A DNA stretch of 26,692 nucleotides from a virus (lineage: Duplodnaviria; Heunggongvirae; Uroviricota; Caudoviricetes), in the IMG/VR virus record IMGVR_UViG_2740892270_000008. One strand, 5' to 3'. The notes beneath the pieces were generated by a model. The model was given only the letters and a program-made list of their open reading frames with translations. It did not search any database and was not told the origin of the DNA. Of the stretch, positions 691-16,306 are shown in pieces; positions within the stretch are counted from its first letter, which is position 1; every line of letters starts with the position of its first letter. A program made the position numbers and the translations under genes.

Positions 691-752
691 CTTTTAAGGC
701 GTTCCAAACAATGCGAAATACTCGATATAGTGCAAAATGCGGGCTAATGCTA

Positions 753-1298
753 TTAACCCGCTTTTGGTTCTACCGCGTTAGATTTGCGACTTCTCTCAGT
801 TTCTTCCAAAATCTCTCTGACGCGTTCGTCAGACATACCTTCAAGCTGTAATGCAGCTATTCTTTTCCTTCCTTCTAAGCGGATTAGATCTTGATTTTCA
901 GGCTCTAACAACCGAGCTAAGTACTTGGCTCCATTCAGAACCAAATTTTTCGATAGCTGCTCTAAGTCTTTTTCATCAAGTGCGCTGATAATCGTCATAA
1001 TTATCTTCTTGCTTTCATCTTGATTTTCCTTGATCTCACACCGATTCACTTGTGATGCATCACTGAATCCACATAGCCACTCAACACTTACTCCTTCGAT
1101 AGACGCAATCTGAAGGGCGACACTTAAGGATGGCTCAGTGCCACGAGACAGATAATTGTTTAGTGTTGAAAATGAAAGCCCCCAATCTCTTGCTGCAGCT
1201 CTGACGCTGCGGGAGCCAATCAGCCTTTTCAGACGCTCAGCAATGCTTTCTTTTCTACCACCAGGAAAAGAAAGAGATGTTGTTGTTTGCTTGTTCAT
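753..1298 (-). CDS. Mu c-type lysogeny repressor-like protein (HTH DNA-binding)
   Basis: 181-aa leftward ORF at the left end, divergent from ner; HTH-like segment VRAAARDWGLSFSTLNNYLSRG near the N-terminus; SD AGGAAG 8 nt upstream on minus strand; position identical to Mu c. Confidence 0.7.
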   Translation of the reverse strand: MNKQTTTSLSFPGGRKESIAERLKRLIGSRSVRAAARDWGLSFSTLNNYLSRGTEPSLSVALQIASIEGVSVEWLCGFSDASQVNRCEIKENQDESKKIIMTIISALDEKDLEQLSKNLVLNGAKYLARLLEPENQDLIRLEGRKRIAALQLEGMSDERVREILEETERSRKSNAVEPKAG

Positions 1299-1483
1299 TT
1301 TCTTTTCTTCCTATCAATTTGAAATTATTAACTTTTAGTGTTGTCAGCAACCATTGATCCACAATAGACAAAAGAAAGATGTTTTTTTTGCTTTACATGA
1401 AGCAGAAGTGGATCAATACTTATATCAAACTTGATAACTAAGTTTAGTTATCAAATTTCGTAACTTTTTAGGATAGATGAATC
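1299..1483. promoter_or_regulatory. Divergent repressor/ner operator-promoter region with inverted repeats (candidate operators and transposition enhancer)
   Basis: AT-rich 185-bp intergenic; 9-bp inverted repeat TTGATAACT-6-AGTTATCAA at 1431-1454 and related GATCAATAC...TATATCAAACTTGAT upstream; in Mu the operators between c and ner also act as the transpositional enhancer. Confidence 0.5.
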
Positions 1484-1714
1484 ATGGCGAGAAATGAAGT
1501 TAAGCCTGATTGGCATCCTCAAAGAATTTTGGGGGAAGTCAGAGCCAGAGAAGGAAGCATGAGGGCGCTGGCCCGTAAAGCTGGCGTGGGTCAGAACAAT
1601 CTGTACAACGCGGTATACCGCCATGTTCCCAAGTATGAGGGGATTATCGCGGAATGCCTGGGGGTGCCGCCCGAGGAGATTTGGCCCAGCCGCTACATTC
1701 GTAAGGTCGCGTAA
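1484..1714 (+). CDS. ner: Ner-like DNA-binding protein (early negative regulator)
   Basis: 76 aa; ...KPDWHPQRILGEVRAR...NNLYNAV...IIAECLGVPPEEIWPSRY matches the Ner family pattern (Mu Ner ...IWPSRY as recalled); located immediately before transposase. Confidence 0.85.
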   Translation: MARNEVKPDWHPQRILGEVRAREGSMRALARKAGVGQNNLYNAVYRHVPKYEGIIAECLGVPPEEIWPSRYIRKVA

Positions 1715-1716
1715 TT

Positions 1717-3804
1717 ATGTTTGCTTCAGTTAAAGAACTGGTTGGATTACCGGGGATGCCGGGAACGGAGCAAGGCGTTCGCTATTCAATCAGGAAGTAT
1801 GCAACCAGCGAAACCAGCAGACGCCGCAAGAAAGGCGCTAAAGGTTTTGAATACAGCATTGACTGTTTACCTGAAGTGACACAGCAGGCATTACGCGAAC
1901 GTTATGCCCTGCAACTGATGACGCAAAAAGCCGATGAATCACCGGCTCCGGTGGTGACAAAGGCCAGACGCTCGTCTGCCGTGGTTGATGCGGTGGAGGC
2001 ATATCGCGGATCACCACAACTGATGGTCGAACGCCTCAATGCCCTGACTGAAAACCAGCGCCAGGTGGCAGACGCACGCATTGCGATCGTCAGTGAGGTG
2101 CTGAAATTCACGCAACAACCCGGTTTCAGCTGCGCTAAAGCTATCCGGTTCCTCGTTAACAGCCTGGCACGATCACAACTGGACGAGCGCATTGTGGCAA
2201 TGGTTGAGACGGCGAACGCCAAAAAGGGAAACAGCCGCGCGTTGAGTGAAATCACGCTGAAACGCTGGATTGCGGCCTTTAACAAGGCACAGAACGCCGC
2301 TGAACGCCTGCTTTTACTGGCACCGGGTAAACGCCAGGAAATAAAAGCCGAAGATATTAACTGGCTGCCCGAATTTCTGGCGCAGTATCGCCAGTCAAAC
2401 GGCCGACCAATGACCGAGGCTTACGAGGATTTTGTTGCTGAATGGCAGCACCGGCACGCTGATGAGCCTTATATGCTCGATATCATGCCCTCTTATGACA
2501 CCATTCGCCGCGCAATGAAGAAACTGCCGGAAGTGGTGAAACAAAAAGGCCGGGTAACTGGCAGTGAATACCGTCAGCTTGAGGGATTCACGCGCCGCGA
2601 CTGGTCCAGAATGCCGGTGAATTATGTCTGGATTGGTGACGGTCACGGCATGAAGCTGAAATGCGCGCACCCGGTTCACGGGCGGCCATTCGCACCGGAA
2701 GTGACCTTTGTTATCGACGGTGGCACGCGCTTTGTGGTGGGCTGGAGCCTTGACCTGGCTGAAAATGTTTTCGCCGTAGCCGGTGCCATACAGCACGGTA
2801 TTCGCCATCATGGCAAACCGTTTCTGTATTACTCGGATAATGGCTCCGGGGAAACCGCCGACGTCCTGGATAAGGAGATTGTGGGGATACTGCCACGACT
2901 GGGGATTAATCACCCGACAGGGATTGCCGGTAATCCGCAGGGACGGGGCATTATCGAACGGCTTAACCGCACATTACCGATGCGCATAGCCCGTAAATAC
3001 CGCACCTATTTCGGGAAAGGAGCAGATCGCGAGACGTTACGTAAAACCAACCGCGATTTACGCTCGGCATTCAGTGCCCTGCAACAGGGCAAACGGCTGA
3101 ACGCCCGGCAGCAGTCAGCGATGCGTGATTTACCGTCCTGGTCTGAACTGATTGATGCCATTCGTGACGGTGTTGAGTGGTACAACAACCGGCCGCACGA
3201 TGAATTACCCATGAAGCCGAACGGTAAACATTACAGCCCGGCGGAGTTCAGAAAAAAACGCCTGGCGGAAGAGGACACGGAAATTGAATGGCTGTCCGAT
3301 GTTGAACTGCGGGATATGTTCCGGCCGATGGTGGAGCGCCCTGTAAGACGCTGTGAAATACGCTGGCTGAATAATATTTACTACGCGCCCGAGCTGCGTG
3401 ACGAGCATGGCCGTAAGGTACTTATCAGCTATGACATTCATGATGCCGAACGAATTACCGTGCGCCGCCCGGATGGCAGCGTGATTTGCGAGGCGGTATG
3501 GGACGGCAATAAACGCGAAGCCTTCCCTGTCAGCGCGGAATACTACAAACAGCAGCAGCGCCTTAAAGGCATGCGTAAACGCGCAGAGGAAAAAATCCGT
3601 GATGCCGAGGATGAGGTTGTCAACGTGCTGGAGCACAAGCCGCAGGAGCCCTGGCTGGAAAACATATACCGCCCTGTGGGTAATACGGTGACCGTTCAGC
3701 AACCGGTCGCTGACGATGAACCTGATGAAGAATACGAGCGTAATTTCCAGCGGGGATTGCAACTGCTCGAAGCGAAATTAAAAGAAAGTGATCCGCTGGC
3801 CTGA
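1717..3804 (+). CDS. Mu A-like DDE transposase
   Basis: 695 aa following ner; DDE core region VWIGDGHGMKLKCAHPVHGRPFAPEVTFVIDGGTRFVVGW and ...YYSDNGSGE...; size and position as MuA. Confidence 0.9.
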   Translation: MFASVKELVGLPGMPGTEQGVRYSIRKYATSETSRRRKKGAKGFEYSIDCLPEVTQQALRERYALQLMTQKADESPAPVVTKARRSSAVVDAVEAYRGSPQLMVERLNALTENQRQVADARIAIVSEVLKFTQQPGFSCAKAIRFLVNSLARSQLDERIVAMVETANAKKGNSRALSEITLKRWIAAFNKAQNAAERLLLLAPGKRQEIKAEDINWLPEFLAQYRQSNGRPMTEAYEDFVAEWQHRHADEPYMLDIMPSYDTIRRAMKKLPEVVKQKGRVTGSEYRQLEGFTRRDWSRMPVNYVWIGDGHGMKLKCAHPVHGRPFAPEVTFVIDGGTRFVVGWSLDLAENVFAVAGAIQHGIRHHGKPFLYYSDNGSGETADVLDKEIVGILPRLGINHPTGIAGNPQGRGIIERLNRTLPMRIARKYRTYFGKGADRETLRKTNRDLRSAFSALQQGKRLNARQQSAMRDLPSWSELIDAIRDGVEWYNNRPHDELPMKPNGKHYSPAEFRKKRLAEEDTEIEWLSDVELRDMFRPMVERPVRRCEIRWLNNIYYAPELRDEHGRKVLISYDIHDAERITVRRPDGSVICEAVWDGNKREAFPVSAEYYKQQQRLKGMRKRAEEKIRDAEDEVVNVLEHKPQEPWLENIYRPVGNTVTVQQPVADDEPDEEYERNFQRGLQLLEAKLKESDPLA

Positions 3805-3886
3805 AATAAAAAAATAACCCGAGGGGTGACTCAGGTTATTTGAGGTTTCAGTCTCGGAGAATGCTGTCTCAAGCGAGGTGAATAAT

Positions 3887-4646
3887 ATGACCGATATTAA
3901 CGATGTAATCAAGACCATTGATGAACTTATTGATGGCGGCGTACTGACGCAGTATGCCATCGCCAGAGAGGCGGGAATTTCCGACGGCACATTATCGGCT
4001 TTCCGTAAGGGAAAATATAAAGGCGATAACGCTGCTGTGGCTGCTTCCCTGCGCTCCTGGTATGAGAACTGGAATAAACAAAGCGCACTGCCGGAACCGC
4101 CGCAGTTTGTGGAAACTCAGACAGTCCAGGAGCTGCGCGCACTGTTTCAGGCGGTTCGCCTGATGGGCTGTATTAACGTTATTGTGGGCGTACCGGGTGT
4201 GGGTAAAACGGCCACTGCCCGTAATTACTGCCAGGAGCAACCAAACACCTGGATGATCACCCTGTCACCCGCGCACTCCAGCGTCACGGAGTGTCTGCTG
4301 GAGCTGGCCGATGCGCTGGGGATTGATTACACCCGCGCGAACAAAGGGGCATTATCCCGCGCCATCCGCCGTCGCCTGATGGGAACGCGTGGACTGGTGA
4401 TTGTGGATGAGGCGGATCATCTTGGTATTGACGGTCTGGAGCAACTCCGGGCAATTCAGGACGCCACGGGGATCGGGATGGTGCTTATTGGTAACCCGCG
4501 CGGATTGTTTAAAGGTGGACGCCGCGCCTTTGATGATTTATCGCGCCTGTTCAGCCGTCTTGCCCGTACAAAACAACTTCGCAAGGCCAAAAAGGCGGAT
4601 GTGCTGGCCATTGCCATGGCGTGGGGGATCAGTGGTGAGGCCGCGG
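3887..4646 (+). CDS. Mu B-like transposition ATPase (C-terminus inside N-masked block)
   Basis: Walker A GVPGVGKT and Walker B LVIVDEADHL; likely ATG 3887 with SD GAGGTG 6 nt upstream (track start 3878 is GTG); ORF runs into masked block 4647-4901 so the true stop is unknown. Confidence 0.85.
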
Positions 4647-4958
4647 NNNNNNNNNNNNNNNNNNNNNNNNNNNNNNNNNNNNNNNNNNNNNNNNNNNNNN
4701 NNNNNNNNNNNNNNNNNNNNNNNNNNNNNNNNNNNNNNNNNNNNNNNNNNNNNNNNNNNNNNNNNNNNNNNNNNNNNNNNNNNNNNNNNNNNNNNNNNNN
4801 NNNNNNNNNNNNNNNNNNNNNNNNNNNNNNNNNNNNNNNNNNNNNNNNNNNNNNNNNNNNNNNNNNNNNNNNNNNNNNNNNNNNNNNNNNNNNNNNNNNN
4901 NTACAGCGGAATATGCCGTTCTGTTGGTGCGAAACAAGTCAGCTAAATGAGGTGTTAT

Positions 4959-5213
4959 ATGAATATGCAATCCTGCGGTAACAAAATGAATTTATTCGAC
5001 TCCCTGAACAGCGCGCGCCGTCTGACCGAACTTGCCGGTGCGGTACTGGAACGCAGTAAGCGCTATCCGCAACGTTTTGCACTGAAAACCACGCCGCCGG
5101 TAGGCAACGTGCAGGGAACCGGTGAAATTGAAATCACCATACAGACCAACGGCCTGCGCCGCCGTGTGAAGGCCACCCGCATCAGCGGCTGCACGGTTTA
5201 CTGGGAGGTGTGA
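4959..5213 (+). CDS. Hypothetical early-region protein
   Basis: ORF in track (4947..5213); ATG 4959 preferred because GAGG sits 7 nt upstream; no recognisable motif. Confidence 0.4.
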   Translation: MNMQSCGNKMNLFDSLNSARRLTELAGAVLERSKRYPQRFALKTTPPVGNVQGTGEIEITIQTNGLRRRVKATRISGCTVYWEV

Positions 5214-5214
5214 G

Positions 5215-5496
5215 GTGAAAAAAAATCTCATTGCATGGGCGTGGTCGAGTGGTCTTATTGAGTTTGGTTACGTCCTGCCGGAAGGTGCATTGCCGATAGT
5301 TGCCGGAAAGCCTGCCACGGTACGGCATGTGATTGAGGTTATGGCGCGTCATGGACGTGATGAACAGGAGCAGTTACTGGTTCCGGGGATACCGGAAGCG
5401 GTGACGGAGGAAGAAGCCTTTAATGCCATGATTCGGTTCTGCCGTGAGGTTAGACGCCGGGTCAGTTATCCAAACAGAACGAGGACCAGAGGATGA
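5215..5496 (+). CDS. Hypothetical early-region protein
   Basis: 93-aa ORF with GTG start overlapping previous stop (TGAGGTG), GGAGG 7 nt upstream; stop overlaps next start (ATGA). Confidence 0.45.
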   Translation: MKKNLIAWAWSSGLIEFGYVLPEGALPIVAGKPATVRHVIEVMARHGRDEQEQLLVPGIPEAVTEEEAFNAMIRFCREVRRRVSYPNRTRTRG

Positions 5497-5765
5497 GTAA
5501 AGTCGTACGCATTATTTTCGAATACAAGGAAGATGTTATCTGCAAAAACTCTGATGGCAGCACGCACAGAGGGGTAAGTCTGGATATACGTTCAACCGGA
5601 ATAAAGAAGAAAGATAATGGACCCGCCATGATTTTTGGGGTGGTTATGCTGGCAGAAAGCAGAAACTTCGCAGAGTTTGTGGCAATGAAAGCCAGTGCAT
5701 TCATGAAAGACAGAGGCATGGCTTCCGGGGTTATTAACGGTAATGAATTTAATCAACAGGGGTAA
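5493..5765 (+). CDS. Hypothetical small protein, paralog 1 of a tandem pair
   Basis: 90 aa, N-terminus MSKVVRIIFEY; shares N-terminal motif with next ORF. Confidence 0.5.
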   Translation: MSKVVRIIFEYKEDVICKNSDGSTHRGVSLDIRSTGIKKKDNGPAMIFGVVMLAESRNFAEFVAMKASAFMKDRGMASGVINGNEFNQQG

Positions 5766-5769
5766 TTCC

Positions 5770-6063
5770 ATGAGCAAAGTACGCGTTATTTTTGAATTTA
5801 ATCATGTTTCGCATGACGAAAAGTTGGCAGGCAATGACTGTGTTGAAGTGCATGAAAAGATTGGAGTGGATGTGAAAACAGAACGTGATACGGATAACAG
5901 GCCGACGTCACTCTGTGACGTTTATGCAAGTATTCTCCAGTATCACAGTCCTGCAATTATTCAGTTTCTCTCAGCGGAATTTCAGGCATCTGCACAGTCT
6001 TTTGGAGCGGATGCCATCATTAAACGCCACCGCGTGCATAAAGCATCAGGCACACTGCAATAA
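5770..6063 (+). CDS. Hypothetical small protein, paralog 2 of a tandem pair
   Basis: ATG 5770 gives MSKVRVIFEFNH..., the same MSKV(V/R)(R/V)I(I/F)FE(Y/F) N-terminus as the preceding ORF; track start 5743 is upstream in-frame. Confidence 0.5.
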   Translation: MSKVRVIFEFNHVSHDEKLAGNDCVEVHEKIGVDVKTERDTDNRPTSLCDVYASILQYHSPAIIQFLSAEFQASAQSFGADAIIKRHRVHKASGTLQ

Positions 6064-6074
6064 GGAAAAACAAA

Positions 6075-6605
6075 ATGGCTAAACGCGTTACAAAATTAAA
6101 GGCCGCAGCCGAGGCGGCACCGCAGACCCGGGAAGAAGTCAGCCGTGATATCCGCACCCTGGGAGATATTCAGCGAGAGGCGCTGCGCCTGGAAACGGCG
6201 ATGAATGACGAAGTGGCAGAAATCACCGCCCGTTATACGCCGCAGATTGAAAATCTTAAAAAGCAAATCAAAGTGCTTTTTAAAGGGATTCAGGACTGGT
6301 GCAAAACCAACCGTGATGAGCTGACGAACGGCGGCAAAACCAAAACAGCCAATCTGACCACCGGAACGGTGTCATGGCGGCTGGGAACGCCATCATGCAG
6401 CGTCAGCCGTGATGTGGAAGGTGTGATTGAAATGCTGCGCCGTATGGGGCTTGAGCGTTTCATCCGCACGAAAGAGGAAGTGAACAAGGAAGCCGTCCTG
6501 GCGGAGCCGGATGCTGTGAAAGGCATTGCCGGTATCAAGGTGAATAAAGGCGCTGAAAGTTTTTATGTCGAGCCTTTTGAACAGGACGCCGGACTGAATA
6601 AATAA
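6075..6605 (+). CDS. gam: Gam-like host-nuclease inhibitor (Ku-like dsDNA end-binding protein)
   Basis: 176 aa; MAKR..KLKAAAEAAPQTREEV..DIRTLGDIQREALRLETAMNDEVAEIT...NRDELTNGGKTKTANLTTGTVSWR...ERFIRTKEEVNKEAVL...PFEQDAG matches Mu Gam nearly motif for motif as recalled. Confidence 0.9.
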   Translation: MAKRVTKLKAAAEAAPQTREEVSRDIRTLGDIQREALRLETAMNDEVAEITARYTPQIENLKKQIKVLFKGIQDWCKTNRDELTNGGKTKTANLTTGTVSWRLGTPSCSVSRDVEGVIEMLRRMGLERFIRTKEEVNKEAVLAEPDAVKGIAGIKVNKGAESFYVEPFEQDAGLNK

Positions 6606-6750
6606 CACCGCATTAATCAATTAAATATCACTTCATTTTAATTATGGCGCTCGCGTCAGGGGACTGCTTGCGCCTGAAAACAGAAAATAAGGGTTAAGAA
6701 ATATGAAATACGTTTATATCGTCATTAATAATGTGGTGGGGAAATAAATC

Positions 6751-7284
6751 ATGATTGATGCAAAAGTGCTTGAAGGGGTTAAAAACTGGCTGTGTATTTA
6801 TGGCCGCCTGACCTGCGGTGTACTGGCTGAAAAAATGAATATGCCGCCATCCTCCATGGTTTATTTTCTGCGTGATGCGGTTGATGCAGGCGTGCTGACG
6901 GAATGTAACGGTTTTTATGATATTCCGCGTCCCCGCCCGGTGCAGCCGGTTCGTCGCAAATGCAGCCAGGAATCTGCGGCTGATGATGTTCAGTGGTGCG
7001 GCTTCAGAAAATCCCTGCCATGGATTGAGGGGCATGATATTCCGTCGATGGCGTGGGAATTTGCTCAGGGCGTTCTGACCTGTGAAACCGTTTATGTGGT
7101 GGCTGAAGTTGATGAGCAGGCCATGAAAGAAGGCGTGCCCCAGTTTGTGATGGCGTATATCGACATACGCCTGGGCGTCATTATCTGCGGTTTAAGCGGC
7201 TGGAATATCACTGAACATGTTCTGCGCTACCTGATTGTTGACCGGACAGCAGCGCCTGCCGGGATATCTGCGGAGGTGGCGTAA
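6751..7284 (+). CDS. Hypothetical protein (possible N-terminal winged-helix)
   Basis: 177-aa ORF with SD GGTGGGGA upstream; translationally coupled to next ORF (TAATG). Confidence 0.45.
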   Translation: MIDAKVLEGVKNWLCIYGRLTCGVLAEKMNMPPSSMVYFLRDAVDAGVLTECNGFYDIPRPRPVQPVRRKCSQESAADDVQWCGFRKSLPWIEGHDIPSMAWEFAQGVLTCETVYVVAEVDEQAMKEGVPQFVMAYIDIRLGVIICGLSGWNITEHVLRYLIVDRTAAPAGISAEVA

Positions 7285-7799
7285 TGTTCTTTAAAACATC
7301 AAACCCTTCCGCGCTGGCTGCGTGGCAAAAATACCAGCAGGACTGCCAGAAAGTTAAGGATGAGGCAAAACGCCTTGAGGCCGTGCTGAATGTTGCGTGC
7401 CGGTCGGTATTTGTATCCGGTATCAGTGGATTTTACTTTAAGGGACTGCGTTTTACGGAGGACAAATATCCTTTTCATCGCGACTTATGGCGAAAACCGA
7501 CTGCGTCGAATGGCTGGAGCTGCACACCGCGCACATCACGTATCCCTAAAACCCTGCGTGTTGCCTCTGATGAACTGAACAGTCTGTGGCGTGAATATTC
7601 GCCCGTCACGTATGCCAGAACCGATGCGCTGTTGTTCTGGTTGGGTATTGATTTCTCGGCAATCCTGTTTGGCCCTGTGAAGTGGTTCTGCGTTGACGAT
7701 GTGATTTACCTTCAGTGCGGCGTAAAACCCGCAAAACAGAAAATGACCGAAATACTGTCTGATGAGTTTTATGCTGCTGAAAAGCGAGTCAGGGGGTGA
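7284..7799 (+). CDS. Hypothetical protein
   Basis: 171-aa ORF coupled to upstream ORF; no recognisable motif. Confidence 0.45.
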   Translation: MFFKTSNPSALAAWQKYQQDCQKVKDEAKRLEAVLNVACRSVFVSGISGFYFKGLRFTEDKYPFHRDLWRKPTASNGWSCTPRTSRIPKTLRVASDELNSLWREYSPVTYARTDALLFWLGIDFSAILFGPVKWFCVDDVIYLQCGVKPAKQKMTEILSDEFYAAEKRVRG

Positions 7800-7802
7800 T
7801 GC

Positions 7803-8354
7803 ATGATGAAATTACAACCCATGGGACTAAAAGGTCGCGCCCCCGCTCATGTCCGTCCGTGGACACCTGAAGAAGATGCGCTGCTGATTGCGCTTTATTC
7901 ATCCACCCCGGTTAAGGATATTGCTGCCAGAATAAAAAGAACTGTCTGGGCTGTATATAACCGGACTGGTGTATTGCGCAGTTCATACCCGGAGTTACTG
8001 AAATATAAACACCCAAGATTTACACCTGATGAAGATAAGTTTATTCGAAAAAATGCCAGAACAATGACCTGCCAGCAAATGGGAGAATATCTCGGACGTA
8101 ATAAAGATTCTGTCAGATGTCGGGCAGGAATGATTGGTGCTGGATTAACAAAGTGCGGAGAGTTACGCCCCGGCACGCGCATATCTGATGATGATGTACG
8201 TCTTATACGTGAGCTGCGTGATTCCGATTACCCACGCCGTCTGTCATTCCGGGAAATTGGCGAAAAGTTTGGAATATCTGAACATTCTGCTCACGCAGTT
8301 TATTACCGTCGCCGGACTGCCGAGGACGCTGTATTACGGGAGTTAACGCCATGA
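7803..8354 (+). CDS. Putative DNA-binding protein with three tandem HTH (Myb/SANT-like) repeats
   Basis: 183 aa; three ~45-aa repeats each beginning (T/S)P-(E/D)-ED: WTPEEDALLIALY...IAARIKRTVWAVYNR / FTPDEDKFIRKN...MGEYLGRNKDSVRCR / ISDDDVRLIREL...IGEKFGISEHSAHAVYYRR; SD AGGGGG 6 nt upstream. Confidence 0.55.
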   Translation: MMKLQPMGLKGRAPAHVRPWTPEEDALLIALYSSTPVKDIAARIKRTVWAVYNRTGVLRSSYPELLKYKHPRFTPDEDKFIRKNARTMTCQQMGEYLGRNKDSVRCRAGMIGAGLTKCGELRPGTRISDDDVRLIRELRDSDYPRRLSFREIGEKFGISEHSAHAVYYRRRTAEDAVLRELTP

Positions 8355-8683
8355 TAACGACCTTATTTGTTGAATCAGATGAACCTCTTGTGTGTGCCGC
8401 CGGAATGCCGCTCTGTGGCGGAACGCTGACCGGCGTTTATTTCGGGGATTTGCGCGGTTATCCCTGGCATTCACTGGATGACGCATTTCCGCCTGATATG
8501 GAGGCTGTCGTGCTGATTGTTCAGTATGGTGACCAACAGGAACTGCGCATCGGCCATATGGGGTATGAAGGCTTTTTTATTGATGAAGAAACCGGAGCCT
8601 GCCTTGAAGATGAGGACGGACAGGTGACGCACTGGTGCCATCTTTCGGCCTTGCCGGAATTACAGGGGATACATAATGGATGA
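8351..8683 (+). CDS. Hypothetical protein
   Basis: 110-aa ORF, ATGA-coupled to preceding gene; acidic. Confidence 0.45.
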   Translation: MITTLFVESDEPLVCAAGMPLCGGTLTGVYFGDLRGYPWHSLDDAFPPDMEAVVLIVQYGDQQELRIGHMGYEGFFIDEETGACLEDEDGQVTHWCHLSALPELQGIHNG

Positions 8684-8819
8684 GCAAATTGTTGAATGTC
8701 CCACCTGTGGAAATGAGGACCCGGAGTATCTGAAAGAGTGCCCACATTGTGGTGAGATAAAATGTAACCACTGCGATATGGGCGACGACACTGCATGTAT
8801 AAATTGTGAGGATGAATAA
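8676..8819 (+). CDS. Small zinc-ribbon protein with four CxxC motifs (not in ORF track)
   Basis: Manually translated: MDEQIVECPTCGNEDPEYLKECPHCGEIKCNHCDMGDDTACINCEDE (47 aa); CPTC, CPHC, CNHC, CINC; start overlaps upstream gene end, stop abuts next gene start. Confidence 0.5.
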   Translation: MDEQIVECPTCGNEDPEYLKECPHCGEIKCNHCDMGDDTACINCEDE

Positions 8820-8820
8820 T

Positions 8821-9108
8821 ATGGAAAAAGAAATCAAATTTGCGCCTAAATCTATCGACGAAGAACTGGCTAAAATCGGCATGCTTGAACGTATGCGGGA
8901 CATTATCGAATATGCGATAAAAGAAAATCTTGCAGCCAGAGAAGCCCTTTTGATAATGGAGCGGGAGATTAACCTGATTAAGGATGCTGTATCTCTGGAT
9001 AATAAAATAGCCCGCGAGGAATACGTTCGCCGTAGGCTCGGTGTTGATGGTTCAGCAATTCTTACATCTGAACATTATGCAAAAATTTTTAATCTTTTTC
9101 AGCGGTAA
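8821..9108 (+). CDS. Hypothetical protein, AT-rich moron-like gene
   Basis: ATG 8821 (MEKEIKFAPKS...) with GAGGA upstream; roughly 40% GC versus ~55% in flanking phage genes (eyeball estimate). Confidence 0.5.
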   Translation: MEKEIKFAPKSIDEELAKIGMLERMRDIIEYAIKENLAAREALLIMEREINLIKDAVSLDNKIAREEYVRRRLGVDGSAILTSEHYAKIFNLFQR

Positions 9109-9328
9109 TCCCCATACAGGCCCGGAGATTGTCGAAATGCCAGTCGGTATTAATATATGAGCCATCCTGGATATCTTCTGCATTTTCCGGGGTAGAGTTT
9201 TTTTGAGCGAGATTGATAATATGTATTGCCTCCTCACGGGAAATCAGCCCCTTATCGAACAGGGTTACCATAAGATTTCCAGCCATTGTGAATGCGGCAA
9301 CATCAAGTGCATTTTTTATATCTGACAT
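9089..9328 (-). CDS. Hypothetical protein on the opposite strand (moron-like), convergent with the upstream gene
   Basis: 79-aa minus-strand ORF; start codon at 9326-9328 with AAGGA ~9 nt upstream on minus strand; 3' end overlaps the convergent gene by 20 bp; lower GC. Confidence 0.45.
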   Translation of the reverse strand: MSDIKNALDVAAFTMAGNLMVTLFDKGLISREEAIHIINLAQKNSTPENAEDIQDGSYINTDWHFDNLRACMGITAEKD

Positions 9329-9356
9329 AGATTTTTCCTTTTATGTTAATTGACAT

Positions 9357-9386
9357 GGCGGTGCGGTAACACCGCCCATTTTTTAT
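9357..9386 (+). terminator. Putative intrinsic terminator (GC hairpin plus T-run)
   Basis: GGCGGTG-CGGTAA-CACCGCC perfect 7-bp stem followed by CATTTTTTAT; lies between the minus-strand moron and gemA. Confidence 0.5.
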
Positions 9387-9398
9387 GGAGCCACGATA

Positions 9399-9701
9399 AT
9401 GAATCGCGCTTCCCTGATTACCTTAATACATGTCGCAAAACGCGATCTACAGCTTGACCATGATACCTATACATCCGCGCTGCTGGCAGCCACCGGCAAA
9501 TCCAGTTGCCGTGATATGTCACCCGGTGAGTTATCCCGCGTGCTGGATGTTTTCAAAAAACGCGGTTTTAAAGTGCGTCAGAAGCCGGTTAACCGGGCCT
9601 TAAAACCGGGTACGGTGACCGCCAAAATTCGCGCCATCTGGAAAGTGATGCACCGGCAGGGATTTATCTCTGATGGCGGGGAAACGGCCCTTAACCGCTG
9701 G
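9399..9701 (+). CDS. gemA: GemA-like protein (Mu gp16 family), C-terminus inside N-masked block
   Basis: MNRASLITLIHVAKRDLQLDHDTYTSALLAATGKSSCRDMSPGELSRVLDVFKKRGF matches Mu GemA N-terminus as recalled; runs into mask 9702-9953. Confidence 0.75.
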
Positions 9702-9972
9702 NNNNNNNNNNNNNNNNNNNNNNNNNNNNNNNNNNNNNNNNNNNNNNNNNNNNNNNNNNNNNNNNNNNNNNNNNNNNNNNNNNNNNNNNNNNNNNNNNNN
9801 NNNNNNNNNNNNNNNNNNNNNNNNNNNNNNNNNNNNNNNNNNNNNNNNNNNNNNNNNNNNNNNNNNNNNNNNNNNNNNNNNNNNNNNNNNNNNNNNNNNN
9901 NNNNNNNNNNNNNNNNNNNNNNNNNNNNNNNNNNNNNNNNNNNNNNNNNNNNNATGATGACCGGAGGCGGGT

Positions 9973-10224
9973 ATGGCTGAAACACAGATGAGCATGTTTG
10001 GTGACAGCGAACAGCTGCACGCGCTGATTGACCGTCTGGATGATATTCCTGATGATGAGCTGAAAAAGAACTGGCCCGGCACGCTGCGGGACCTGGTTGA
10101 TGTGATCAGTGCTGAACTGCACCGTCAGGGGATTGAACCTGCTCAGGCGGGAATGCTTGCCCGTAAGGTTGCAGCCGCACAGGCCGGGTACATGGGCGGG
10201 CGTGGTTATTATCTCCCGGTCGGT
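9973..10224 (+). CDS. mor: Mor/C-family transcriptional activator (middle operon regulator-like), C-terminus inside N-masked block
   Basis: N-terminal MFGDSEQL... and ...LARKVAAAQAGYMGGRGYYLPVG resemble Mu Mor (...ICKHLGGGQVYIPRG) as recalled; SD GGAGG 5 nt upstream; HTH region expected within mask 10225-10405. Confidence 0.65.
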
Positions 10225-10405
10225 NNNNNNNNNNNNNNNNNNNNNNNNNNNNNNNNNNNNNNNNNNNNNNNNNNNNNNNNNNNNNNNNNNNNNNNNNNNN
10301 NNNNNNNNNNNNNNNNNNNNNNNNNNNNNNNNNNNNNNNNNNNNNNNNNNNNNNNNNNNNNNNNNNNNNNNNNNNNNNNNNNNNNNNNNNNNNNNNNNNN
10401 NNNNN

Positions 10406-10895
10406 CCCCGCACCCCTGCGTAAAAAGCTGATTGCCCTTGTTCTGGCCGGAGCCGGGACGTTCACCATTGCCACGCACTACACCGGCTACTGGGAAGGGA
10501 AAGAAAACACCACGTACATTGATCCCACCGGCACCCCCACCATCTGTTACGGCCATACCGGCCCGGATGTGAAACCGGGGATGACAAAAACTGATGAAGA
10601 GTGTCTGGAGCTGCTGGAAAAGGACATGAAATGGGCCTTTGCGGCTATCGATCGTCATGTTCAGGTGCCGCTTACCCGTGGTCAGACGGTGGCGCTGGCC
10701 TCCTGGATTTTCTGGGCCGGTGAAACGAACTTTCGCAACTCCACGCTCCTGCGCCTTATCAATGCCGGGCAGATGCCCGCGTCCTGTAAGCAGTATATCC
10801 GCTGGATTTATTCAAAGGGGGTAAAACTCCCCGGTCTTGAGGCCCGCCGTTCGGCGGATGAATGGTTATGTCGTTACGATTTGCCGAAAGTCTGA
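10406..10895 (+). CDS. Endolysin, GH24 (T4-type) lysozyme with probable N-terminal SAR domain; N-terminus inside N-masked block
   Basis: Frame open from the mask: ...LRKKLIALVLAGAGTFTIATHYTGYWEGKENTTYIDPTGTPTICYGHTG... (catalytic E in YWEG, TICYGHT motif); weakly hydrophobic Gly/Ala-rich segment before the catalytic domain suggests SAR-type secretion. Confidence 0.8.
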
Positions 10896-11007
10896 ACCGC
10901 TTCTGGCGACCGCTCATGATTGCGCTGCTGTGTGCCGTTGTGCTGCTGCGGGGTGTGCTGTGTCTGCGGTGAACAATCCCTTACCGGCCCTGATTGCCGG
11001 AGGCTGT

Positions 11008-11358
11008 ATGGCGGCGCTGGGGGTGATGAGCGTGCTGGCTGCCGTGGTATGGGGAATGCACCAGAAGACGCAGCGCCTTGAGGACAATAATCATGTGCTT
11101 GTGCGTGAACGGGACGAAGCCCGTCTGGTGCTGGCAAACCAGCAACGCACCCTGCAACTCATTTCACAAATCAGCAAGGCGGCCACGAATGAAAAACAGC
11201 AGAACATGCAGCACAGCGAGGAACAGCAGAGCATTGTCCGCCGGTCACTGGCAACGGTGCCTGCTGCCGCTGTGCCTGTGCCTGATGATGTGGCTGACCG
11301 GGTGCGGCGGGCCGTCTGTGAAATACGTGCCGGTGAAGCCGGTGCCGATCCCCGCTGA
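11008..11358 (+). CDS. i-spanin (Rz-like), N-terminal TM plus coiled coil
   Basis: ATG 11008 with GGAGG 5-6 nt upstream; MAALGVMSVLAAVVWG TM then Q/E/R-rich helical region; contains the o-spanin start in the +1 frame. Confidence 0.65.
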   Translation: MAALGVMSVLAAVVWGMHQKTQRLEDNNHVLVRERDEARLVLANQQRTLQLISQISKAATNEKQQNMQHSEEQQSIVRRSLATVPAAAVPVPDDVADRVRRAVCEIRAGEAGADPR

Positions 11359-11560
11359 ATGGCTGGCTGACTGCCTGGTCCCTCCCGCGCCGCAGCCGTT
11401 CACGTTTGGTGCATCGGTCACTTACAACCTGCAACTGCTGGCGGTGATTAAAAACTGCAACGTGGACAAGGCCAGCATCCGCCGTCTGGAGACACAGCGA
11501 CAGCATGAATTTACTGATATGGCCGGAACGACTGCTGTTCCGGCAGGAAAGACGAAGTAA
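11189..11560 (+). CDS. o-spanin (Rz1-like outer-membrane lipoprotein), overlapped architecture
   Basis: +1 frame relative to i-spanin; hydrophobic LLPLCLCLMMW followed by lipobox LTGC; proline-rich mature part (KPVPIPAEW..PPAPQP); extends past i-spanin stop. Confidence 0.6.
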   Translation: MKNSRTCSTARNSRALSAGHWQRCLLPLCLCLMMWLTGCGGPSVKYVPVKPVPIPAEWLADCLVPPAPQPFTFGASVTYNLQLLAVIKNCNVDKASIRRLETQRQHEFTDMAGTTAVPAGKTK

Positions 11561-11570
11561 GGAAAAAGGT

Positions 11571-11798
11571 ATGGATGATTCAGATTGTGCTCAGGCAGTC
11601 ATGGAGCGTGCAACAGAACGCGCCCTTTGTGACCGGCTGACACGTAAGCGCCGGGTGGCGGAGACACCGGGCAGGCGTGTATGCGCGGACTGCGGGGGTG
11701 ACATTCCGGCTGCCCGTCTGGTTGCCGTGCCGGATGCCATCCGTTGTGTGAACTGCCAGAACATCATGGAGGCCGGTCATGTGGGTCAGCATCGTTAA
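11571..11798 (+). CDS. TraR/DksA-family C4 zinc-finger protein
   Basis: 75 aa from ATG 11571 (SD AGGAAAAAGG); CADCGGDIPAARL...IRCVNCQ zinc-finger typical of phage TraR-like proteins. Confidence 0.7.
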   Translation: MDDSDCAQAVMERATERALCDRLTRKRRVAETPGRRVCADCGGDIPAARLVAVPDAIRCVNCQNIMEAGHVGQHR

Positions 11799-12090
11799 AG
11801 ATTATGTCGTGCCGATCCTGTCGGCAACGGCCACAGCCGGGGGGATCTTCATGGCGCTGATGCGCAAAACCTTTGTCCCCCGCGAGGCCTTTGAAAAACT
11901 CTCCGACCGGGTTGAGCGGGTGGAGAGCCGGATTTCCGGCCTGCCCACGCAGCAGGAGGTGAACAGACTCAATATCGAAATCACCACCCTGCGCGGTGAG
12001 CTTAAGGCCACCAATGCCACCCTGAAATCCGTCTCCCATCAGAACGAACTGCTGCTGGAGCAGGCTGTAAGGAAAAAACACAATGAGTGA
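11779..12090 (+). CDS. Small membrane/coiled-coil protein; candidate releasin-like lysis factor by position
   Basis: 103 aa; single N-terminal TM (VVPILSATATAGGIFMALM) then coiled coil; occupies the slot between lysis genes and gp27-like, where Mu encodes gp25 (inference). Confidence 0.4.
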   Translation: MWVSIVKDYVVPILSATATAGGIFMALMRKTFVPREAFEKLSDRVERVESRISGLPTQQEVNRLNIEITTLRGELKATNATLKSVSHQNELLLEQAVRKKHNE

Positions 12091-12373
12091 TTTCATTACT
12101 GAAGATCAGCGTCTTGTCATTCTGCGGTCGCTGGCGGATTACAACGGCGAACTGGGCGAATCCGTGCTTCAGGACTGCCTGGATGATTACGGTCACCGCG
12201 TGTCCCGCGACACCGTTCATACCCACATTGCCTGGCTTGCCGAGCAGGGACTGGTGCGTAAGCGCACGCTTGTTAACGGTTATTTCATCGCTGAACTGAC
12301 CGGCCGGGGTCAGGATGTGGCGGAAGGCCGCGCCACCGTTCCGGGTGTGAAGAAACCACGCGCAAGGGGGTAA
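12083..12373 (+). CDS. Hypothetical protein (possible winged-helix), Mu gp26 position
   Basis: 96-aa ORF, coupled to neighbours (ATGA overlap upstream; SD AGGGGG for next gene downstream). Confidence 0.45.
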   Translation: MSDFITEDQRLVILRSLADYNGELGESVLQDCLDDYGHRVSRDTVHTHIAWLAEQGLVRKRTLVNGYFIAELTGRGQDVAEGRATVPGVKKPRARG

Positions 12374-12375
12374 CG

Positions 12376-12957
12376 ATGGATAAGCCAGCGCGTGGCCGTG
12401 TACGCAAGGTGGATTTGCTCCCCGACAGCATCCGTAAGCCGCTGCTGGAAATGCTGCGTGAAAAACGTCTGACGCAGGTCCAGATCCGCGAGGAAATCAA
12501 CCGTCTGATCCGTGAAGCAGGTCTGCCGGAAGAGCAGCAGCTCTCACCGGCGGCCATCAGCCGGGAAGCCTCCCGTAATGAGCTGATTGCCCGTAATCTG
12601 CGTGATTTACGCGAGCAGACAAAAGCCATGATGGCCGAACTGGGGGATAAGCCGACCGGTGAAACCACGGCACTGATTCTGGAGATGTCCCGTGCCCTGA
12701 TGTACCGCCGTCTGCGTGCCGCCACCGAATCCCTGAACAGCGACAGCGATGTGGATATGCGCCTTATTAAGGACATCCTCCTGTCGGCACAGCGTGCAGA
12801 AAGTGCCGCCGAGCGCAGCATTAAGCGTGAAAAAGAAATCCGGGCCGCATTTGCTGAAGAGATGGCGAATGCGGTCACCGATGAGTTGCGCGGCGTGGAT
12901 GGCATGAGCGAGCAGATCGAATTCCGTATCAGGCAGATGCTGCTGGGTAAGGCGTAG
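12376..12957 (+). CDS. Mu gp27-like protein (putative terminase small subunit / DNA-binding packaging protein)
   Basis: 193 aa, helical, basic N-terminus, immediately upstream of large terminase as in Mu; family assignment by position and composition. Confidence 0.55.
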   Translation: MDKPARGRVRKVDLLPDSIRKPLLEMLREKRLTQVQIREEINRLIREAGLPEEQQLSPAAISREASRNELIARNLRDLREQTKAMMAELGDKPTGETTALILEMSRALMYRRLRAATESLNSDSDVDMRLIKDILLSAQRAESAAERSIKREKEIRAAFAEEMANAVTDELRGVDGMSEQIEFRIRQMLLGKA

Positions 12958-12967
12958 GAGGTGAATC

Positions 12968-13216
12968 ATGGCAACAGATAACCGCTCACTGATGAGCAGT
13001 GCCCATCAGAAAGCATTCAGTCTTGCAACACAGTTACCTCCTGAAACCATAAAGGTATGTCGTGAGTTGACTGAACTCAGCATTGCCGGGGAAATATCCC
13101 TGGAACAACTGCATTCGCTGCTGGCAGAGGCTGCCACTGATGAGTTGAGCGGCGTGGACGTGATGACTGAAGAGCTTGAGTCCCGAATCAAAAGCATTCT
13201 GACAGGTAAAGCATGA
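12968..13216 (+). CDS. Small protein duplicating the C-terminal module of the gp27-like protein
   Basis: 82 aa, strong SD AGGAGG; C-terminus ATDELSGVDVMTEELESRIKSILTGKA parallels upstream protein C-terminus AVTDELRGVDGMSEQIEFRIRQMLLGKA; stop overlaps TerL start. Confidence 0.5.
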   Translation: MATDNRSLMSSAHQKAFSLATQLPPETIKVCRELTELSIAGEISLEQLHSLLAEAATDELSGVDVMTEELESRIKSILTGKA

Positions 13217-14880
13217 TGAACAAAGCCAGAGAAACGTCGCCTTCACTGATGCAAATGACGCCTCCCCGCAAAATTGATCTGTCAGGTGAAAAAGCCCTGC
13301 TGGGCGTGGATGTGCCGGACAGCCTTGATTTGCCCGGTGATATGCCGGTGTTTCTGGATTATCAGGCCCGCTGGTTTGCAGATGAAAGTCAGGTCTGCAT
13401 CGCGGAGAAATCCCGCCGCACCGGTCTTACCTGGGCGGAAGCCGGGCGTAACGTCATTACTGCTGCAAAACCGAAGCGTCGTGGTGGCCGCAATGTGTTT
13501 TATGTGGGATCAAAGCAGGAGATGGCGCTGGAATATATTTCTGCCTGCGCGCTGTTCTCCCGTGCCTTTAACCAGCTGGCAGATGCTGATGTGTATGAGC
13601 AGACATTCTGGGATCGGGATAAAAAAGAAGAAATTTTGACCTACATGATCCGCTTTCCGAACAGTGGATTCAAAATTCAGGCATTGTCTTCCCGTCCGTC
13701 AAACCTGCGCGGCCTTCAGGGGGATGTGGTGATTGATGAAGCCGCGTTCCACGAGTCACTGGATGAGCTTCTCAAGGCGGCAATGGCGCTCACTATGTGG
13801 GGCGCGCGCGTGCGTATTATCTCCACGCATAACGGCGTCGATAATCTGTTTAATCAGTACATTCAGGAAGCCCGCGAGGGGCGCAAGGATTACAGCGTCC
13901 ACCGCATAACCCTGGATGATGCCATTGCGGACGGGCTGTACCGTCGTATCTGTTACGTCACCGATCAGGAATGGTCACCGGAAAGCGAGCAGAAATGGCG
14001 TGATGATCTCTACAAAAACGCCCCGACCCGTGAGGATGCCGACGAGGAATACGGCTGTATCCCGAAAAAATCCGGCGGTGCCTATATCCCCCACGCGCTT
14101 ATTGAAATGGCGATGATCCGCGACATCCCGATTCTGACGTTTGAAGCCCCGGACAACTTCATCAGCCGTGCCGCATGGCTGCGTGAATCGGAAGTTTTAA
14201 CCTGGTGTGAAGAACATTTAAAACCGCTTTTAGAGAAATTAAATCCCCGTTCCCGCTTCAGCTTCGGGGAAGACTTTGCCCGCACCGGTGACCTGTCCTG
14301 CTTTGTGCTGCTGGAAATCACCGAATCCCTGGCAAAGCGCGAGGTGTTTCGCGTGGAGCTGCGCAACCTGCCGTATGCCCAGCAGGAACAGGTGATGATG
14401 TACATCCTGACCCGCGTTCCGGCGCTGGTCGGTGCGGCGTTCGACGCCACCGGTAACGGCGGCTATCTGGCAGAGGCCGCACTGCTGGCCTTTGGCCCGG
14501 ACATCATCGACTGCGTGATGTTGTCGCCGAAGTGGTACGGCGAGTGGATGCCAAAACTGAAAGCCGAGTTTGAAGATCAGAATATCCTCGTCGCCCGCCA
14601 TCAGACCACGCTTGATGATTTGCGCCATGTGAAGGTAGTGAATGGTATCCCGCAAATCGACAAGGGGCGCACGAAGGACCAGAACGCAACGGCTGCGAAC
14701 GCCCGCCGCCATGGTGATTTTGCCGTGGCGCTCTGTATGGCAAACCGGGCGTCATACATGGAGGGCTTCATCCTGGATGAATCAGCCTGTCAGGCGCTAC
14801 AGGAGCGGTCGCGGGCAATGGAGGGCGGTTATCGTGATGACGATGAGGCATATCATGAATTTGATCGGGGGGGCTGGTAG
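13213..14880 (+). CDS. Terminase large subunit (Mu gp28-like)
   Basis: 555 aa; ATPase-like VVIDEAAFHE (Walker B) and C-terminal nuclease region; position before portal. Confidence 0.85.
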   Translation: MMNKARETSPSLMQMTPPRKIDLSGEKALLGVDVPDSLDLPGDMPVFLDYQARWFADESQVCIAEKSRRTGLTWAEAGRNVITAAKPKRRGGRNVFYVGSKQEMALEYISACALFSRAFNQLADADVYEQTFWDRDKKEEILTYMIRFPNSGFKIQALSSRPSNLRGLQGDVVIDEAAFHESLDELLKAAMALTMWGARVRIISTHNGVDNLFNQYIQEAREGRKDYSVHRITLDDAIADGLYRRICYVTDQEWSPESEQKWRDDLYKNAPTREDADEEYGCIPKKSGGAYIPHALIEMAMIRDIPILTFEAPDNFISRAAWLRESEVLTWCEEHLKPLLEKLNPRSRFSFGEDFARTGDLSCFVLLEITESLAKREVFRVELRNLPYAQQEQVMMYILTRVPALVGAAFDATGNGGYLAEAALLAFGPDIIDCVMLSPKWYGEWMPKLKAEFEDQNILVARHQTTLDDLRHVKVVNGIPQIDKGRTKDQNATAANARRHGDFAVALCMANRASYMEGFILDESACQALQERSRAMEGGYRDDDEAYHEFDRGGW

Positions 14881-16306
14881 TGGGACGCATCATTGATACT
14901 GACGGAAAACCTTTCTCCTTTGACCCGGAGATGCAGAGTGCCGCGCTGGATATTCCGCAGATTGCCAGCCGTTATATTGAACATCCGGCTTCGGGTATCA
15001 CCCCGAACCGGGCGGCGCAGTGCCTTCGCGGGGCTGAACGTGGCGATCTGATTGCCCAGTCCGATCTGGCCGCTGATATTGAAGAAAAGGACACCCACCT
15101 TTTTGCGGAGCTGGGCAAGCGACGTCTTGCCATTCAGGGGGTGCCATGGAGTATTGAGCCGCCACCGAACGCCAGCGCGAATGAGAAAAAGGACGCGGAA
15201 ATGCTCGACGAATATCTGCATTCCGCAGACTGGTTTGATGCCATGCTGTTTGACGCCACGGATGCCATCCTGAAGGGCTATTCCTGCATGGAAATTGAGC
15301 ACGGGATGCTCGGTAAAATGCACATCATCCGCGCCATCCGCTGGCGTGACAGCGGGCATTTCTGCCTTAACCCGGATGATTTGAGCGAACTGCGGCTGCG
15401 TGACGGCAGCCATGCCGGGGTGGCGTTTCAGCCCTTTGGCTGGATAGTGCATCAGTCGCGTTCACGCACCGGCTACGGTGGTGCGACGGGGCTTGTCAGA
15501 ACGCTTATCTGGCCGTTCATTTTCAAAAACTATTCCGTGCGCGATCTGGCGGAATTTCTGGAGGTGTACGGCCTGCCAATGAAGGTCGGGAAATACCCGT
15601 CCGGGGCAACACCGGAGCAGAAAAGTGCCCTGATGCGGGCGGTGATGGATATCGGGCGACGTACAGGCGGGATCATCCCGGCCGGGATGTCGCTGGAGTT
15701 TCAGGCGGCAGCGAACGGTCAGGCCGATCCGTTTGAAACCATGATTTCGTGGGGTGAGCGTTCCATCTCCAAAGCAATACTCGGCGGCACGCTGACCACA
15801 GAAGCCGGAGACAAAGGCGCGCGCTCGCTGGGTGAGGTGCATAACGAGGTGCGCCGGGAAATCAGGGATTCTGATTTACGCCAGCTGGCTGCAACCCTGA
15901 ACCGCGATCTGGTGTATCCGCTGTATGCCCTGAACACCGCCCACGCCATTGATATCCGTCGCCTGCCGCGTATCTGTTTCCAGACCAAAGAACCGGGGGA
16001 TATCACCAAAATAGCCAGTGCGGTGATGCAACTCAGTGCGGGGATGGATATTCCTGATCCCTGGGTACGGGATCAGACCGGTATTCCACAGCCCACGCCC
16101 GGTGAAGCCATATTCCGTGTCCGTCAGAGCAGTAATGAACCGGCCATGCCTGACAGGGAAACGCTACCGGAAAAACAGGAAAAGACAGAACAGACGGCGC
16201 TTTCAGCCCGACTGCCGGAAGCGAAAAACACGCCGCGTGATGAACTGGACGACATGGGGGACGCGGTGCCTGCCCGCCGCTTACAGGAGGCCATCGATCC
16301 GGTGCT
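14880..16306 (+). CDS. Portal protein (Mu gp29-like, DUF935 family); C-terminus inside N-masked block
   Basis: GTG start overlapping TerL stop (TAGTG); 475 visible aa; track fuses it with F across the mask into a 969-aa ORF, which is an artefact of X translation. Confidence 0.8.

Follow-up and report, generated by a model that had tools for sequence, protein, structure and literature searches.

The window analysed here, the whole 26,692-nucleotide (nt) stretch of IMG/VR record IMGVR_UViG_2740892270_000008, is an Escherichia coli Mu-like prophage whose positions 6000-10000 match the chromosome of strain 600029 at 100% identity. Among its early genes lies one for a protein of 183 amino acids (aa), which a first-pass annotation had placed at 7803-8354 and described as built from three tandem helix-turn-helix (HTH) units. 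Both the coordinates and the product proved correct, the coding sequence (CDS) being exactly that of WP_000977059.1, which RefSeq names 'SANT/Myb-like DNA-binding domain-containing protein'. The open reading frame (ORF) is a genuine conserved gene, with family members down to 28% identity.

In strain 600029 the RefSeq gene order runs repressor, Ner-like HTH, Mu transposase, AAA ATPase (B), five small ORFs, Gam and two hypothetical genes, then the gene studied here, further hypothetical genes, gp16/GemA, Mor and lysozyme. The gene begins 4 nt past the stop codon of the preceding gene (7797-7799), and its own stop codon overlaps the start of the next gene in an ATGA at 8351-8354; no promoter-like or terminator-like signals were found between the gene and its neighbours. 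Because of this tight packing without a separating signal, we assign the gene to the early operon. Its features are listed below with the basis of each (AF2, AlphaFold2; pLDDT, predicted local distance difference test).

7791-7796, plus strand: Shine-Dalgarno-like AGGGGG, 6 nt 5' of the ATG (read from the sequence)
7803-8354, plus strand: CDS of the triple-HTH protein, 183 aa, complete including the stop codon (ORF list; RefSeq identity)
7803-7853, plus strand: N-terminal arm, aa 1-17, basic, predicted to be disordered yet conserved, PMGxPG(K/R)xPxH (pLDDT; conservation)
7854-7988, plus strand: unit 1, aa 18-62, Myb/SANT-like bundle starting W-T-P-E-E-D, helix 3 at aa 48-59 (AF2; Pfam; profile)
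7863-7877, plus strand: DNA-level repeat trace ACACCTGAAGAAGAT, encoding TPEED (15 nt; repeat search, 93% identity)
7900-8300, plus strand: allele-divergent patch (sliding identity and class-association scans)
8013-8141, plus strand: unit 2, aa 71-113, Myb/SANT-like bundle starting F-T-P-D-E-D, helix 3 at aa 101-110 (AF2; c-Myb R3 match; hhalign)
8022-8036, plus strand: partner copy ACACCTGATGAAGAT, encoding TPDED (159 nt, or 53 codons, from 7863-7877)
8142-8174, plus strand: linker with K117-x-G119-(D/E), the most conserved motif of the family (36-sequence alignment)
8175-8351, plus strand: unit 3, aa 125-171, with C-terminal helix, aa 172-183; sigma-70-region-4/AsnC-type HTH, helix 3 at aa 160-169 (Pfam; AF2; Foldseek; profile)

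Fold and domain identity of the three units

The AF2 model of the full protein, built from a 22-sequence family alignment, has a mean pLDDT of 84.6 (~90 inside the domains) and consists of three three-helix bundles. Their helices lie at aa 22-32, 37-43 and 48-59 in unit 1, at aa 75-84, 90-97 and 101-110 in unit 2, and at aa 129-140, 149-156 and 160-169 in unit 3, followed by an extra C-terminal helix at aa 173-181, while residues 1-13 fall below a pLDDT of 50 and are predicted to be disordered. Structure prediction thus bears out a tandem triple-HTH protein. The further description of the protein as three ~45-residue repeats, each starting with (T/S)P-(E/D)-ED, holds only in part: there are three structural units of ~42-47 aa plus linkers, but the repeat period is 53-54 residues, and the starting motif is present in units 1 (TPEED, aa 21-25) and 2 (TPDED, aa 74-78), where it is the N-terminal Myb signature W/F-T-x-E-E-D, but not in unit 3, which starts ISDDDV.

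The self-alignment suggested in the first-pass annotation gave a similarly divided answer. Single-sequence Smith-Waterman comparison against shuffles yielded p=0.018 for R1-R2, p=0.024 for R2-R3 and no significance for R1-R3, and as this is too weak to prove repeats, profile-profile comparison was needed. With hhalign, the family sub-alignments of R1 and R2 matched at 98% probability (E 1.7e-13), whereas R3 matched R1 or R2 at only 8-20% probability. At the level of sequence, repeat homology is demonstrable for units 1 and 2 only.

Pfam models matched the protein itself with Myb_DNA-binding (PF00249; 19.7 bits against a gathering cut-off of 24.4, aa 19-33 only) and, in unit 3, with HTH_AsnC-type (18.8 bits against 27, aa 130-164), Sigma70_r4 (PF04545; 12.2 bits against 24.1) and HTH_10 (likewise sub-threshold), the last three together spanning aa 130-164. 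Across 36 relatives (E<0.01), Myb_DNA-binding was matched by 17 (best E 2.2e-8), Sigma70_r4 by 26, Sigma70_r4_2 by 21, HTH_38 by 19 and HTH_AsnC-type by 15, with a best E of 5e-11 for the sigma-4 models. When the family profile was compared with PDB sequences, it matched c-Myb R2R3 at E 1.2e-6, with query residues 18-106 in register on residues 60-150 of 1H88, and also B-Myb (1e-4) and the archaeal protein Cbp2 (2LVS, 5e-4). In the AF2 model, units 1 and 2 each have the Myb-type three-helix bundle with an HTH made of helices 2 and 3 (pLDDT ~90). Of Myb's three regularly spaced tryptophans only the first is retained (W20, invariant, with F73 in unit 2), the second and third positions aligning to aliphatic or small residues in the family profile alignment against c-Myb.

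Unit 3 is of a different kind. In a Foldseek search of the PDB, the full AF2 model had 2LVS as its top match (probability 0.96, E 0.059) and nothing at E<=1e-3, which we attribute to domains arranged as beads on a string; aa 114-183, modelled separately (AF2 pLDDT 82), gave as top matches 3N97 and 1KU7, both of sigma region 4 on -35 DNA, with a probability of 0.96, E 0.14-0.25 and TM ~0.5. The unit-3 profile matched sigmaE region 4 (E 1e-3) and an AsnC regulator (3e-3). No match to sigma region 2 or 3 was found (TIGR02937, 12.3 bits against a cut-off of 42.9), nor any match to the AsnC C-terminal RAM domain (AsnC_trans_reg) even at E<=10. The AsnC/Lrp family is defined by this C-terminal ligand-binding and oligomerisation domain, and the name 'AsnC family protein' carried by many relatives is therefore a misnomer. 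Membership of the GcrA family was considered and rejected, PF07750 being absent from the protein (E<=10) and from the 25 families with the most matches among the 36 relatives; it is present in some multi-repeat relatives.

Taken together, the Pfam results across relatives, the family profile and the structural matches of aa 114-183 define an architecture of two Myb/SANT-like units and one sigma-4/AsnC-type HTH. The label of Myb/SANT-like repeats therefore fits units 1 and 2 and is two-thirds right, since unit 3 belongs to another HTH class. The protein is in no curated family by threshold, yet it is clearly of the Myb/SANT-like, homeodomain-like tandem HTH kind. It is also basic (isoelectric point 9.9, net charge +12). 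The N-terminal arm, with G11 and H16 invariant and P6 and P14 conserved at >=90%, is a putative minor-groove arm by analogy with the arms of homeodomains and Hin; in the linker before unit 3, K117 is the sole invariant column and G119 is conserved at >=90% (36 sequences, 28-74% identity).

Several known systems resemble parts of this architecture. The R2R3 regions of c-Myb and B-Myb (PDB 1H88, 1A5J, 1MSE) share the two consecutive ~50-residue three-helix units, the W/F-T-x-E-E-D start, the G-R-T/S turn before helix 3 and helix 3 as the presumed recognition helix, whereas our protein is of bacterial or phage origin, scores below the Pfam cut-off, and adds an N-terminal arm and a third, non-Myb HTH. 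Cbp1 and Cbp2, CRISPR-repeat-binding proteins of Crenarchaeota, are likewise small, basic and prokaryotic and consist only of linked HTH repeats with basic linkers, and their domains (three in Cbp1, two in Cbp2) bind one ~25-bp site (PMC3597662, PMC3315313). The likeness to 2LVS is weak (23% identity at the Foldseek E given above), and Cbp1 and Cbp2 are archaeal chromosomal genes, whereas ours is an enterobacterial prophage gene with no link to CRISPR arrays; moreover, all three repeats of Cbp1 are alike. Sigma-70 region 4 (PF04545/PF08281; 1KU7, 3N97, 2H27) resembles the four-helix layout predicted for unit 3 with its C-terminal helix, although the protein itself has no significant match and lacks the other sigma regions. 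To AsnC/Lrp regulators the likeness is confined to the weak HTH_AsnC-type match.

Relatives and genomic setting

An exhaustive phmmer search returned 1141 cluster representatives at E<=1e-3, 168 of them at E<=1e-10, which form two groups. Members of the first are ~150-216 aa long, retain the three-unit layout at identities as low as 28%, and share the K-x-G-(D/E) linker and the PMGxPGKxPxH arm. The second consists of longer proteins in which the unit-1/2 repeat recurs 3-12 times in tandem (phmmer E 1e-37 to 1e-12 for Myb-like repeat-array proteins), made up of repeats only (P0040, P0122) or fused to HNH_3 (P0188, P0194, P0201), LAGLIDADG_3 (P0193) or helicase-like (P0031) domains. Nuclease-bearing and all-repeat arrays such as P0188, P0193, P0194 and P0122 share the repeat W-T-x-E-E-D...I-A...L-G-R-(S/T)...R...L-G, but they carry 2-12 copies and a nuclease or helicase-like domain, whereas the family of our protein has exactly two, together with a sigma-4-like HTH, and lacks any enzyme domain. 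P0122 (797 aa, 12 matched stretches), P0040 (762 aa) and P0031 (807 aa, about nine repeats after its helicase-like N-terminal domain) are uncharacterised proteins that consist almost wholly of HTH repeats.

The best phage-family match was PHROG 323, 'transcriptional regulator, D5-like' (E 5e-53; aa 2-182 on profile positions 80-256 of 319). This label is annotation only: no tested member of PHROG 323 was found, and no origin for 'D5-like' was found, a paper on DRT4/ORF55 that came up in this search being unrelated. BFVD contains numerous similarly shaped phage proteins with several HTHs, all of them uncharacterised.

Among 50,697 phage records searched with tblastn at E<=1e-5, 13 were matched. 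The only phage isolates among these were Mu-like inserts in two Shiga toxin (Stx) phages (71-73% identity), the P2-like Citrobacter phage Shae_phiSM (37%), HNH/methylase regions of mycobacteriophages and one Vibrio phage; phage Mu, D108 and SfMu were not among them, in line with the remark of the first-pass annotation that tandem triple-HTH proteins are unusual among Mu early genes. The core early genes of Mu are c, ner, A, B, kil, gam, gemA and mor. The two Stx1a/Stx2c-converting phages (LC727895.1 and LC727881.1) carry the ~72% allele in a region annotated 'region of the inserted Bacteriophage Mu-like phage', the result of a Mu-like element transposing into another prophage. The related repeat of mycobacteriophages lies in HNH genes flanked by small ORFs annotated as DNA methylase.

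Mu-like contigs of IMG/VR carry homologues of 58-99% identity at the same syntenic position, between genes of PHROG 2314 and PHROG 6925. P2-like prophages carry homologues of 38-46% identity, also within the early operon: they follow C and, if it could be identified, cox, and precede replication gene A by 0-1 kb, some of them overlapping its start codon. In the 186/P2-like loci L056 and L057 (6646-8540), a Dam-type methyltransferase gene (MethyltransfD12) lies two genes upstream of the homologue, whose stop codon overlaps the start of gene A. Scans of genome contigs with two family alignments gave pattern matches, none of which was confirmed by tblastn. Hosts named among the relatives are E. 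coli, Salmonella and Citrobacter. That Mu-like and P2-like prophages, which are unrelated, both carry the module, and invariably in an early operon, argues for an autonomous accessory function; the gene is an accessory module and not a core Mu function.

Allele classes and divergence of the third helices

The gene is present in 232 of 5426 complete E. coli genomes (~4%) in two allele classes, with 29 matching records >=90% identical to the allele of the window and 202 at 60-80%. The latter allele is that of Mu-like prophages of O157 and Shiga toxin-producing E. coli (STEC), where it is represented by WP_000973023.1, 'DNA-binding protein'. Between related prophages the flanking proteins are 91-98% identical and the protein itself 72-75%, and at the nucleotide level identity between the classes is 56-84% in the patch at ~7900-8300 against 91-99% in its flanks. 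Synonymous divergence (dS) is 0.6 in the gene and 0.03-0.27 in the flanks, and the gene-wide ratio of nonsynonymous to synonymous divergence (dN/dS) is 0.24-0.26, which together indicate an old allele that entered by recombination and is maintained by purifying selection.

The differences between the alleles are concentrated in the third helices, where they affect 55% of positions against 21% elsewhere (permutation p<5e-5), and where dN/dS is 0.54-0.67 against 0.05-0.10 in helices 1 and 2 at equal dS. Positive selection is not shown, as the helix-3 ratio is raised yet remains below 1. Within this variable setting, R46 and R54 and, exactly 53 residues on, R99 and R107 occupy equivalent helix-3 positions and are invariant or nearly so, while the rest of helix 3 has the highest entropy (1.5-1.9), compared with 0.2-1.1 in helix 1 throughout and in helix 2 of unit 3; in units 1 and 2, helix 2 comes close to helix 3 in variability (1.4-1.6). 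Conserved arginines resembling phosphate contacts beside variable positions fit what is expected of recognition helices with diverging specificity. A second mosaic patch lies at ~5800-6100, with 60-78% identity to loci L009, L014, L018-L020, L030 and L041, which are otherwise 90-100% identical, and it varies independently of the allele of the gene.

Other features of the prophage were noted in passing. A conserved 47-aa ORF at 8676-8819 (plus strand; PHROG 5584; 91-93% in related Mu-like prophages), with four CxxC pairs of zinc-ribbon-like appearance, overlaps the 3' end of a 110-aa gene and the beginning of the gene that follows. A conserved 79-aa ORF at 9089-9328 (minus strand; PHROG 32893) runs against the rightward early operon, and next to it, just before gp16/GemA, stands a strong terminator-like hairpin at 9357-9376 (GGCGGTG...CACCGCC followed by a T-run); positions 9100-9200 belong to the patches in which related prophages differ more strongly. 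Besides the canonical Gam (6075-6605), the prophage has a 93-aa ORF at 5215-5496 (plus strand) with a match to PHROG 1518, 'host nuclease inhibitor' (E 4e-43). The left end of the prophage (~504) abuts a truncated IS66-family TnpB-like ORF at 196-519 (PHROG 623, 'transposase', E 7e-68) in window positions 1-519, whereas the 99.8% identical prophage of strain 600029 lies within a disrupted sgrR, homology to that genome beginning at window position 504; such differing insertion sites fit a transposable phage. Six stretches of N of 181-255 bases each (4647-4901, 9702-9953, 10225-10405, 16307-16556, 18010-18259 and 23288-23537) mask parts of B, gp16/GemA, Mor and late genes, for which ORF lengths and translations are therefore unreliable.

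Possible functions of the protein

In c-Myb R2R3, Pax and Cbp1/Cbp2, HTH domains joined by basic linkers read sites of ~20-25 bp. With these precedents we hold, at moderate confidence, that the protein is a small, basic, probably monomeric binder of double-stranded DNA that acts from the early (lytic) operon at an extended site as an accessory regulator or roadblock. It would be made early in lytic growth, and helix 3 of each unit would enter the major groove as in the three precedents, with the basic arm and the linkers lying in or across the minor groove. A monomer could in this way recognise a single long, asymmetric site of some 20-30 bp and serve as an auxiliary transcription regulator or roadblock on DNA of the host or of a rival element during lytic growth, and different alleles may recognise different sequences. 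Since the cassette occurs in two unrelated lineages and no region of the carrier separates cleanly with the allele, we infer that its target is more likely to be host or rival-element DNA than an operator of the carrier phage. The fold, the homology of units 1 and 2, the basic charge, the conservation pattern, the genomic position and the allele structure are shown here and speak for this reading of the protein, as do the PHROG 323 match and the use of the same repeat type as the non-catalytic part of HNH and LAGLIDADG nucleases; DNA binding, although almost certain, is inferred, as are its mode, its sequence specificity and the regulatory role.

A number of observations weigh against such a role. 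A repeat search of positions 1-12000 returned, besides the coding TPEED/TPDED pair, nothing but two-copy families at chance level, with no repeated motif around the gene, and an association scan with allele class over 500-17000 in 40 related loci separated the classes cleanly only inside the gene itself, the Mor region (10000-10200) being partly, not strictly, linked with the allele; neither approach yielded a candidate binding site. Every Pfam match of the protein lies below its gathering threshold, and the predicted template modelling score of the AF2 model (0.57) leaves the relative orientation of the bundles undefined. The variable residues of helix 3 could equally reflect relaxed constraint in a non-specific binder. 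Finally, a literature search on the protein, its accession and Myb-like proteins of Mu-like phages found no experimental work.

The last point but one leads to the strongest of the alternatives, which we nevertheless consider unlikely, namely that the protein coats DNA or perturbs the nucleoid through arginine-phosphate contacts without reading bases, and so condenses, protects or disturbs the DNA of host or phage at an early stage of lytic growth. Its strongly basic character, the invariance of the helix-3 arginines alone while putative base-reading positions vary freely, and the failure of both scans to reveal a cognate site would all suit such a protein. However, the closest relatives (Myb R2R3, Cbp1/Cbp2 and sigma region 4) are all sequence-specific, the same repeats are joined to homing nucleases, which need long specific sites, and the persistence of two discrete old alleles under purifying selection (dS ~0.6, dN/dS ~0.25) looks like the maintenance of specificities.

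We think it improbable that the protein is directed at RNA polymerase, as a sigma appropriator or partial mimic whose sigma-4-like unit 3 would dock on the beta-flap or compete with sigma70 region 4 while the Myb-like units provide promoter recognition. The top structural matches of aa 114-183 are to sigma region 4, some of them in complex with the beta-flap tip, the Sigma70_r4 models are widely matched among the relatives, and early expression would suit host takeover. Those Foldseek matches are, however, not significant (E 0.14 or worse), the Sigma70_r4 score of the protein is about half the cut-off, equivalents of sigma regions 2 and 3 are lacking, generic tri-helical HTHs frequently match sigma-4 models, and Mu-like and P2-like phages already possess the Mor/C and Ogr activators.

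An equally doubtful proposal is that the gene is the orphaned targeting module of a homing endonuclease, a selfish mobile DNA-binding gene whose nuclease has been lost or acts in trans and whose product could shield its own insertion site against a related nuclease. It would account for the same Myb-like repeat preceding HNH_3 and LAGLIDADG_3 domains in four relatives (P0188, P0194, P0201 and P0193), for the best non-enterobacterial phage matches falling in HNH/methylase regions of mycobacteriophages, and for a cassette that is flanked by conserved genes in phages of unrelated kinds and swapped as an allele patch. Yet the nuclease-free three-unit architecture is kept across >=36 diverse clusters under purifying selection, and in Mu-like prophages the gene holds a fixed syntenic position and is not scattered. 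Nor was a nuclease domain found in the genes next to it, which belong to PHROG families of unknown function, and PADLOC returned no match for the gene and three neighbours.

There is also a slight chance that the protein is a modular, monomeric DNA reader whose three recognition helices, exchanged and diversified among prophages that are otherwise almost identical, are a specificity determinant in conflict, in which case presence in the early operons of both Mu-like and P2-like phages implies that the target would lie outside the carrier phage. Such a protein could act in a few ways. First, it could bind and silence a rival element, such as a satellite, a co-resident prophage or a superinfecting phage. 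Second, it could silence a host defence locus, much as Cbp1 binds CRISPR repeats. Finally, it could re-address RNA polymerase through its sigma-4-like unit. The DNA mimic offered as an alternative in the first-pass annotation, or a chance pseudo-repeat without an HTH fold, can be dismissed: the acidic start of each unit (EED, DED, DDD) would suit it, but the basic charge of the protein excludes a mimic, and the confident HTH bundles and significant repeat homology refute the rest.

In summary, the protein is assembled from domains of known types, databases already label its gene as DNA-binding, and nothing shows an unusual mechanism; the focus of allele divergence on helix 3 and the sharing of the gene between Mu-like and P2-like phages make it modestly interesting. 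In practical terms, the 'AsnC family protein' annotation of its relatives calls for correction. If the protein is confirmed to be a sequence-specific binder, it would represent an uncharacterised early accessory regulator in Mu-like prophages of ~4% of complete E. coli genomes, including those of the O157/STEC type, and a compact natural three-module DNA reader whose specificity seemingly evolves through helix 3, with a possible use in engineering.

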